Sequence record: PV778520.1
Source: Escherichia phage RCIP0359
Direction: 5' to 3' (one strand)
DNA: 59,541 nt
Each line of letters starts with the position of its first letter. The first letter of the stretch is position 1. Positions 33,974-34,777 of this stretch are shown here, piece after piece. Position numbers and translations under genes: made by a program. Under the pieces are notes generated by a model. The model saw only the letters and a program-made list of their open reading frames with translations. It did no database searches and had not been told where the DNA came from.

Positions 33974-34777
33974 TTACAAGCCGTTCAGGGCTTCCGGTAC
34001 TGGTACAGGTACGCGACCAGTTACACCATTAAATTTCTTCCAGCGTGCATACTGGGTTTTAACGGTATCTTCGTTCAGCCCATGGCGACCAGCCAGATTC
34101 AGAACATAAGAGATCGGAGCAGGCTGGCCCAGCGTAGCGCTAATCTGGTCCATCAGAGCCCAGGCACGACCGCAGGAAGTTTCCGGTTGCGGACGGCGAA
34201 CACCGTTCTGTTCAGGCATACGATTAGCTTCTTTTTCTTTCTCGCGGAGCTCTTTAGCGCGTGCTTTTTCCGCTTCTTTTTCTGCCTGTTTTGCAGCACG
34301 GATCTTGTCTTTGAAGCCTTTAATAGTAGCTTCCAGACCATCCACCAGACCCTGGGCAGAAGTTACAGCACCGGACAGGTCTTCACCTTTAGACTTCTTG
34401 ACGACAGCTTTCAGCTCTTTCAGAGCTTCTTTAATGGTCTTCAGGTTTGCAGATCCCTGAGTTTCTGCTTCCGTGATTTGTTCAACAGTGCTTTCGTCGG
34501 TGACGGTAGCCAAAGAGTTTTTCAGAATTTCAGCAGCGTTAGCAATCGCATTAAATTTGTTTTCCGCTTCAGTGCGGATTTCAGCTTGTTTCTTTTCAGC
34601 GGCAGCTTTTTTCTCTGCTTCTTTTTTCTCTTTTGCTACGCGTGCAGCTTCAGCGGCTGCGGCTTTCTTAGCTTCTGCATCATTCACAGTAGCTTCTTTC
34701 TTTGCAGGTTTAGCAGATTTTGCAGCGGCGGCAGCAGCGGCTGCGGCAGCAGCTTTTTTGTCTTCAATGTTGCTCAT
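33974..34777 (-). CDS. Lys/Ala/Glu-rich protein with conserved C-terminal domain
   Basis: 267 aa from ATG 34777 (RBS GGAG; track start is GTG); poly-Ala run and KKAAAE repeats; C-terminal ~60 aa paralogous to C-terminus of 50609-51223. Confidence 0.55.
   Translation of the reverse strand: MSNIEDKKAAAAAAAAAAAKSAKPAKKEATVNDAEAKKAAAAEAARVAKEKKEAEKKAAAEKKQAEIRTEAENKFNAIANAAEILKNSLATVTDESTVEQITEAETQGSANLKTIKEALKELKAVVKKSKGEDLSGAVTSAQGLVDGLEATIKGFKDKIRAAKQAEKEAEKARAKELREKEKEANRMPEQNGVRRPQPETSCGRAWALMDQISATLGQPAPISYVLNLAGRHGLNEDTVKTQYARWKKFNGVTGRVPVPVPEALNGL

Follow-up and report, generated by a model that had tools for sequence, protein, structure and literature searches.

The locus considered here raises the question of what two phage proteins with differing N-terminal parts and a common C-terminal module may be doing in the same genome. 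The stretch of DNA under study, referred to as the window, is the whole 59,541-nt sequence of Escherichia phage RCIP0359 (PV778520.1), a Seurat-like coliphage in which both loci of interest are 92–97% identical to Seuratvirus genomes (Seurat, CAjan, CSP1, phiG7, and BASEL phages). Protein 1 (positions 33974–34777, minus strand; 267 aa, coordinates including the stop codon) starts with an ATG at 34777 that has a GGAG ribosome-binding site. It is a homolog of Seurat gp44 and matches phrog_11298 (E 3e-112). Protein 2 (50609–51223, minus strand; 204 aa, stop codon likewise included) starts with an ATG at 51223, as in its database homologs; it is a homolog of CAjan gp68 and matches phrog_22313 (E 2e-141). 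Seurat gp44 and CAjan gp68 are both annotated as hypothetical proteins. A word-indexed search with full-length protein 1 returned 225 homologs; the full-length query was required, as the 89-aa domain as sole query gave zero matches.

An earlier sequence-only reading of this DNA had proposed that the two proteins share a C-terminal domain. Both reading frames are found at the positions given above, and the shared domain is confirmed. Pairwise alignment of the C-termini by BLASTP is significant (29% identity over 69 residues, E 6e-6 in a single comparison), and so is profile alignment by hhalign, in which profiles of the two domains, built from 42 sequences for protein 1 and from 6 for protein 2, were compared (probability 97.4%, E 1.5e-11, 65 columns). 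Protein 1 and protein 2 also match phrog_21588 (E 1.9e-7 and 2.3e-6, respectively), which is labelled 'unknown function' in PHROGs, as are phrog_11298 and phrog_22313. In a six-frame HMM scan of the window, these two copies of the domain are the only ones. In protein 1 it covers residues about 187–262 (33992–34219, minus strand), as delimited by the family profile match and the AlphaFold2 model; in protein 2 it covers residues about 141–204 (50612–50803, minus strand), as delimited by BLASTP and profile match, and is devoid of the GRV-Pro tail that is found after the domain of protein 1.

The shared module is 65–75 residues long. It is predicted to consist of a short, basic beta-hairpin arm of the type N-G-x-R-[RK]-P, packed against a three-helix core with the motif ...W..xD...G.P........G.N..t...[QE][YF]..W[RK]K[FY].G, in which the columns N, P, W, Y, W, and G of the domain are invariant. 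The structure prediction that had been suggested as a check was carried out: in the AlphaFold2 model (pLDDT 93–97), the domain of protein 1 is predicted to form a beta-hairpin arm (EQNGVRRP) and helices at residues 201–216, 222–231, and 236–249, with a GLN turn before helix 3. The predicted fold is tri-helical and helix-turn-helix (HTH)-like. The mean net charge of the domain among family members is +4.45, and helix 3 is unusually conserved across phages of different hosts (E. coli, Vibrio, Rhizobium, and high-GC bacteria). Comparison of the full-length model of protein 1 with the PDB by Foldseek gave three-helix bundles and spectrin repeats as top matches, none of them at E up to 0.001. Since this search was swamped by helical bundles, a domain-only model was built. 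Its best structural matches in the PDB are RecX repeats, the C-terminal winged helices of MCM and RPA32, Z-alpha, and MecI/ArsR-type regulators. The likeness to winged-helix and tri-helical HTH domains would lie in the predicted three-helix core and in the glycine-containing turn before the third helix. Structure matches in BFVD are uncharacterised phage proteins exclusively. Scans of both window proteins against Pfam, NCBIfam, and PADLOC yielded no real match; hits to KR, IL15, Sigma70_ner, CAF1A_acidic, and Borrelia_P83 were discarded as compositional noise. Sequence searches of the PDB with three profiles gave chance matches only (the Tet4 design, eS26, and an archaeal RNAP A'' segment).

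The Pfam family HNH_repeat (PF18780) is likewise a short helical module of similar length, often arranged in tandem and attached to nucleases. It displays the pattern W...L...LGR.P......, a polar stretch, and an aromatic-x-x-W end, which resembles the shared domain. For the divergent member P0269, the two copies together score 27.1 bits with this model (gathering threshold 26), and single divergent copies match at E 0.002–0.005 in profile positions 11–49. Protein 2 remains below threshold (14.6 bits, E 0.042) and protein 1 gives no match, while HNH_repeat matches occur in 2 of 140 family members and in none of 42 domain sequences scanned. Unlike the shared domain, the HNH_repeat model has no N-terminal NGxRRP hairpin arm, and neither window protein contains an HNH or other nuclease domain in Pfam or NCBIfam.

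Both N-termini had been described as low-complexity and charged, a description that holds for protein 1 and fails for protein 2. The poly-Ala run and the KKAAAE-type repeats of protein 1 are plain in its translation. A poly-Ala/Lys-rich helix is predicted, with lower confidence, at residues 4–20 (34718–34768, minus strand), and three long helices are predicted by AlphaFold2 at residues 33–90, 98–128, and 135–184 (34226–34681, minus strand; pLDDT above 90). The outer parts of this helical region are rich in Lys, Ala, and Glu. Residues 67–160 are of ordinary composition, with conservation restricted to Seuratvirus, Nonagvirus, and Vid5-like phages, and most relatives of protein 1 are 160–200 aa long and have just a Lys/Ala/Glu stretch. 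Residues 1–186 comprise 39 Lys/Arg versus 33 Asp/Glu, and the Lys/Ala/Glu regions of 258 family members display a net charge of +0.03 per residue and 1% Pro. This region is a balanced polyampholyte of the kind typical of stable single helices and coiled coils, and not an H1-like basic tail. Residues 1–66 and 160–186 do resemble the Lys/Ala-rich tails of Hc1, AlgP, and H1-like proteins in composition; unlike those tails, protein 1 is balanced in charge instead of strongly basic and is predicted to form stable helices, and no homology was detected. The resemblance of its Lys/Ala/Glu helices to TolA domain II and KfrA is presumably one of composition only. Several homologs bear the labels 'plectin 1', 'TolA', 'colicin uptake', 'chromosome segregation ATPase', or 'outer capsid protein', all of which were rejected as compositional artefacts without a supporting domain match; the first four can be traced to the Lys/Ala-rich composition of residues 1–66 and 160–186. 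Antisense to the whole of protein 1 lies a 302-aa open reading frame (33968–34876, plus strand) rich in Phe, Ser, Cys, and Leu, which is almost certainly spurious, a by-product of the repeated Lys/Ala/Glu codons of the opposite strand.

Protein 2 is organised differently. Its residues 1–58 (51050–51223, minus strand) form a small N-terminal domain with the motif Y-x-[ST]-K-x-N-A-R-R-A ... G-[FW]-x-[IL], which is the most highly conserved part among protein 2 homologs and has no family match. Only residues about 60–140 (50804–51049, minus strand) are, by composition, a Pro/Ala/Glu/Lys linker. The same N-terminal domain precedes the shared domain in other phages (L026, 8176–8754; P0154, P0213, P0276) and in a Pigmentiphaga MAG (L180). 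In CAjan, a gene for an HNH homing endonuclease (L002, 4425–4907) is located directly 3′ of the protein 2 ortholog and is absent from the corresponding part of the window (50377–50608). It is a separate mobile insertion, and its presence in CAjan and absence here mark a variable hot spot among Seuratviruses.

Both proteins are encoded within an early replication, recombination, and DNA modification block that comprises Sak4, SSB, a Cas4-like exonuclease, an SF2 helicase, the domain proteins, QueE/C/D, FolE, DpdA, the clamp, and the polymerase. The order around protein 1 on the minus strand is SF2 helicase (35459–37441), a 164-aa open reading frame (34905–35399), protein 1, QueE (33197–33904), and the remaining Que/DpdA cluster. 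Terminator-like hairpins are located 3′ of the helicase gene (35420–35444, minus strand) and, followed by a T-run, 3′ of protein 1 before QueE (33926–33949, minus strand), each at a place where a terminator is annotated in Seurat. As the two hairpins flank the 164-aa frame and protein 1, these genes form a bracketed two-gene cassette. A search for iterons and operators around protein 1 returned only repeats that are due to Lys/Ala/Glu codons, and promoter scans gave weak consensus matches and nothing more.

The 164-aa frame immediately upstream of protein 1 matches phrog_7864, has no Pfam match, and is without the shared domain in this phage. Homologs in two other loci end in a divergent copy of that domain (L026, 8936–9640; L020, 8913–9644). 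In the former, the order is helicase, a protein-2-like protein, the homolog of the 164-aa frame with its own divergent C-terminal copy, the protein 1 homolog, and QueE; the order in L020 is similar. Moreover, a domain of the 164-aa type is fused in a single reading frame to the protein 1 homolog, in Rosetta-stone fashion, in P0089, P0191, P0212, P0230, P0218, P0175, and P0271, several of which are metagenomic. The source phage, in which the 164-aa protein lacks the domain and the protein-2-type gene is found 16 kb away among small early genes, is a reduced variant of this arrangement.

With a profile made from both families, at least 2,249 cluster representatives (50% identity) are detected at E up to 0.001, and 1,167 of these at E up to 1e-10. 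In the phage collection searched, 149 records carry the domain, among them phages of Escherichia, Salmonella, Pantoea, Providencia, Pseudomonas (Iggy, NP1, PaMx25, and Quinobequin), Vibrio, Rhizobium, Aminobacter, Sphingomonas, Stenotrophomonas, Variovorax, and Acinetobacter. The gene neighbourhood is conserved along with the domain. In 80 viral loci retrieved from IMG/VR by the domain profile, the helicase ends 1–3 kb upstream of the domain gene, and QueE follows on the same strand, its start 80–440 nt away, in each of the 78 loci with sequence that far downstream. A second scan with divergent domain copies as query added 66 loci, 61 of them with downstream sequence. Taken over both scans, Que/DpdA genes lie beside the domain gene in 139 of 139 informative viral loci (78/78 and 61/61). 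Where both flanks are present (131 loci, a few contigs being counted twice), the interval between helicase and QueE contains one domain-bearing reading frame in 27 loci, two in 73, three in 30, and four in one. The arrangement extends to distant phages: three such genes occupy this interval in a 42-kb Stenotrophomonas phage, and two in Rhizobium phage RHEph04.

DpdA together with the enzymes for preQ0 synthesis constitutes the minimal set for modification (PMC6884629). Four phages with the same block of Sak4, SSB, Cas4-exonuclease, helicase, clamp, and polymerase, which are devoid of Que/DpdA genes, were used for comparison, and the domain is absent from three of them (KL1, RcTitan, and 1N2-2). 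Salmonella phage brunost (genus Rosemountvirus) encodes a copy directly after the helicase (gp37; L185, 8986–9453), and no Que or DpdA homolog was found in the first 50 kb of its 52.8-kb genome. The module order of brunost gp37 is reversed, with the domain first and the Lys/Ala/Glu-rich tail last. A further variant is a 10.8-kb contig (L155, 594–7356) with the order helicase, triple-domain protein, 78-aa frame, DpdA-like gene (23% identity), 318-aa frame, and PolA. It contains no QueE/C/D or FolE, the genes for preQ0 biosynthesis, and consequently looks like a DpdA-only system, presumably dependent on a precursor from the host; the domain gene stays with helicase and DpdA despite the absence of Que genes. 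The linkage to Que/DpdA is striking, yet not absolute. Much of it may be due to shared phage ancestry, as the tight synteny may merely mirror a conserved gene order in one large phage lineage. A strict tie of the domain to deazaguanine modification is weakened mainly by brunost gp37, and also by bacterial and MuF copies.

The domain occurs in a notable set of fusions and other architectures. It is found in tandem arrays of two to three copies (P0139, P0177), after an HSDR_N-like nuclease fold, and as stand-alone proteins of 89–115 aa (97–115 aa for those outside the Que/DpdA context, bacterial ones included). The 105-aa gp51 of the Stenotrophomonas phage likewise does without the Lys/Ala/Glu stretch. 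One myovirus-like contig encodes a 932-aa head protein of the MuF family (P0274; L154, 10001–12799) with two copies of the domain, an ADP-ribosyltransferase toxin domain, and a metalloprotease-like HExxH motif (spotted by eye), adjoined by the portal gene; such an architecture points to a domain that accompanies packaged DNA or cargo on injection. On a Vicinamibacterales chromosome, a complete Menshen locus NsnA-NsnB-NsnC (L156, 7923–11701) has the domain at residues 27–82 of NsnA (PADLOC NsnA, 4e-136), N-terminal to the start of the PADLOC profile, followed by the GmrSD_N/ParB-DUF262 core and adjacent NsnB and NsnC. N-terminal extensions of NsnA are interpreted as DNA-binding sensors of phage components, mostly winged helices, of which 33 families have been published (PMC12065111). 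The bacterial homolog takes exactly the position of these sensor domains (PS-wHTH and related families) in type II Menshen, before the ParB-DUF262 core; unlike NsnA, the phage proteins lack a ParB/DUF262 part and do not serve in defence. A VapB-like antitoxin (L158, 7956–8864) bears the domain ahead of an AbrB-type fold and a C-terminal tail, and is followed after 4 nt by a 126-aa PIN-like toxin frame (assigned by eye). About 15 bacterial loci resemble this one, and the L176 homolog of the antitoxin is the only one with a MazE_antitoxin match in Pfam.

Based on this dataset, we hypothesize, with a slight balance in its favour, that the shared domain binds nucleic acid, probably duplex DNA, and serves as a targeting or anchoring module. 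DNA binding is the best inference from the predicted HTH-like fold, the positive charge, the tandem arrays, and the fusions to DNA-acting and DNA-sensing proteins. As an adaptor, the domain would bring differing N-terminal parts, either cargo or oligomerisation modules, to DNA: in protein 1 a long helical Lys/Ala/Glu-rich rod or bundle that would probably self-associate, in protein 2 a small globular domain on a flexible linker, and in related phages the domain of the 164-aa frame. The near-invariant helix 3 is unlike that of sequence-specific regulators; it would be expected if the domain bound DNA non-specifically or by structure, or if it had a conserved protein partner. The latter leads to the main rival explanation, since proteins are the ligands of many winged helices and the conservation of helix 3 across hosts is so high. 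The domain might be a protein-protein docking module that recruits the N-terminal parts to a shared hub, for instance the neighbouring SF2 helicase, DpdA, the clamp, or some conserved protein of the host, without direct contact to DNA. We regard this as unlikely, though as the most serious of the alternatives. The domain also occurs where such partners are absent (MuF proteins, Menshen NsnA, VapB-type antitoxins, and stand-alone bacterial proteins), brunost has the helicase and, in the 50 kb covered, not DpdA, and tandem arrays as well as fusions to nucleases and sensors are better explained by DNA binding. It is less probable still that the two proteins activate middle or late phage genes as sequence-specific transcription factors. 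The predicted HTH-like fold, faint cross-matches to sigma-70 regions 3/4, the location of the genes in an early or middle block, and a 'transcriptional activator' label in the records of Vid5, Iggy, R7M, BA3, and CAjan would all be in line with such a role. This label, however, comes without a domain match, and no AraC, FtrA, or other regulator family is matched by the proteins. Residues of the recognition helix are near-invariant among phages of unrelated genomes and hosts, two to three paralogs stand side by side, no repeated operator-like DNA is found beside the genes, and fusions to head proteins, antitoxins, and defence sensors are atypical of a dedicated activator.

A DNA-binding or nucleoid-remodelling role had also been proposed in the sequence-only reading, where it was attributed to N-termini resembling histone H1 or nucleoid-associated proteins. 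DNA binding as such remains plausible, although by way of the shared domain (HTH-like by prediction, with a net charge of about +4.5 and the fusions described above) and not by way of the tails; the H1-like part of the proposal is not supported for N-termini that are near charge-neutral, almost proline-free, predicted to be helical, and without a match to linker-histone or nucleoid-protein families, and nothing in the results speaks for nucleoid remodelling. That Lys/Ala/Glu N-termini coat or compact DNA, with the shared C-terminus in a secondary role, is accordingly the least credible of the explanations. The high Lys/Ala content and poly-Ala run of protein 1 and the pI of 9.4 of both proteins speak for it. 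Against these stand the low net charge per residue of the N-terminal regions, their prediction as long helices instead of disordered tails, and the lack of any match to linker histones, HU/IHF, H-NS, Lsr2, or Hc1 in Pfam and NCBIfam at E up to 1. A tail of this kind is missing from protein 2, many family members do without the stretch (gp51 and the stand-alone forms), and brunost gp37 carries it on the other side of the domain. Only marginally better placed, and clearly improbable, is a more specific version of DNA binding, in which the domain reads 7-deazaguanine-modified DNA or another feature specific to phage DNA. Phages would then direct factors for replication, recombination, or protection to their own dPreQ0- or dG+-containing DNA; bacteria would have captured the domain as the sensory part of defence proteins (Menshen NsnA, for example); and cargo of MuF proteins would be kept on the packaged genome by it. 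A reader is favoured by the near-perfect linkage to Que/DpdA and by the lack of the domain in three of four related DpdA-less phages, whereas the brunost copy, again without DpdA in the 50 kb covered, and many bacterial copies outside that context argue against a strict link.

Both genes are already present in databases as hypothetical, and their fold class is an ordinary one. What sets this large family, as yet unnamed and uncharacterised, apart is the N-terminal arm, the almost fixed genomic slot, and the notable set of fusions. It occupies this slot beside the genes for 7-deazaguanine modification in a large group of phages, whose hosts include Escherichia, Salmonella, Pseudomonas, Vibrio, and Rhizobium; several of these phages serve as models (CAjan, 9g, Iggy, and BASEL phages). 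The same module has been recruited by a defence sensor (Menshen NsnA), antitoxins, and injected head or toxin proteins. The domain could reveal how phages or hosts distinguish modified phage DNA from host DNA; should it be just another non-specific HTH, the gain would consist in better annotation only. The papers on CAjan, Iggy, and the phage deazaguanine pathway leave the genes for domain proteins undiscussed, and the protein 1 homolog is absent from the list in the text on the Vid5 virion proteome, which was checked for a virion role. Definition of the family would help to approach the two or three conserved genes that each genome carries and would mend misleading labels such as 'transcriptional activator FtrA', 'plectin', and 'TolA'. 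FtrA contains an AraC-type HTH and/or a DJ-1/PfpI domain. The window proteins, with homologs annotated as 'transcriptional activator FtrA domain-containing protein', display no AraC, HTH_18, or DJ-1 match in Pfam or NCBIfam, and this label appears to have been propagated between GenBank records.
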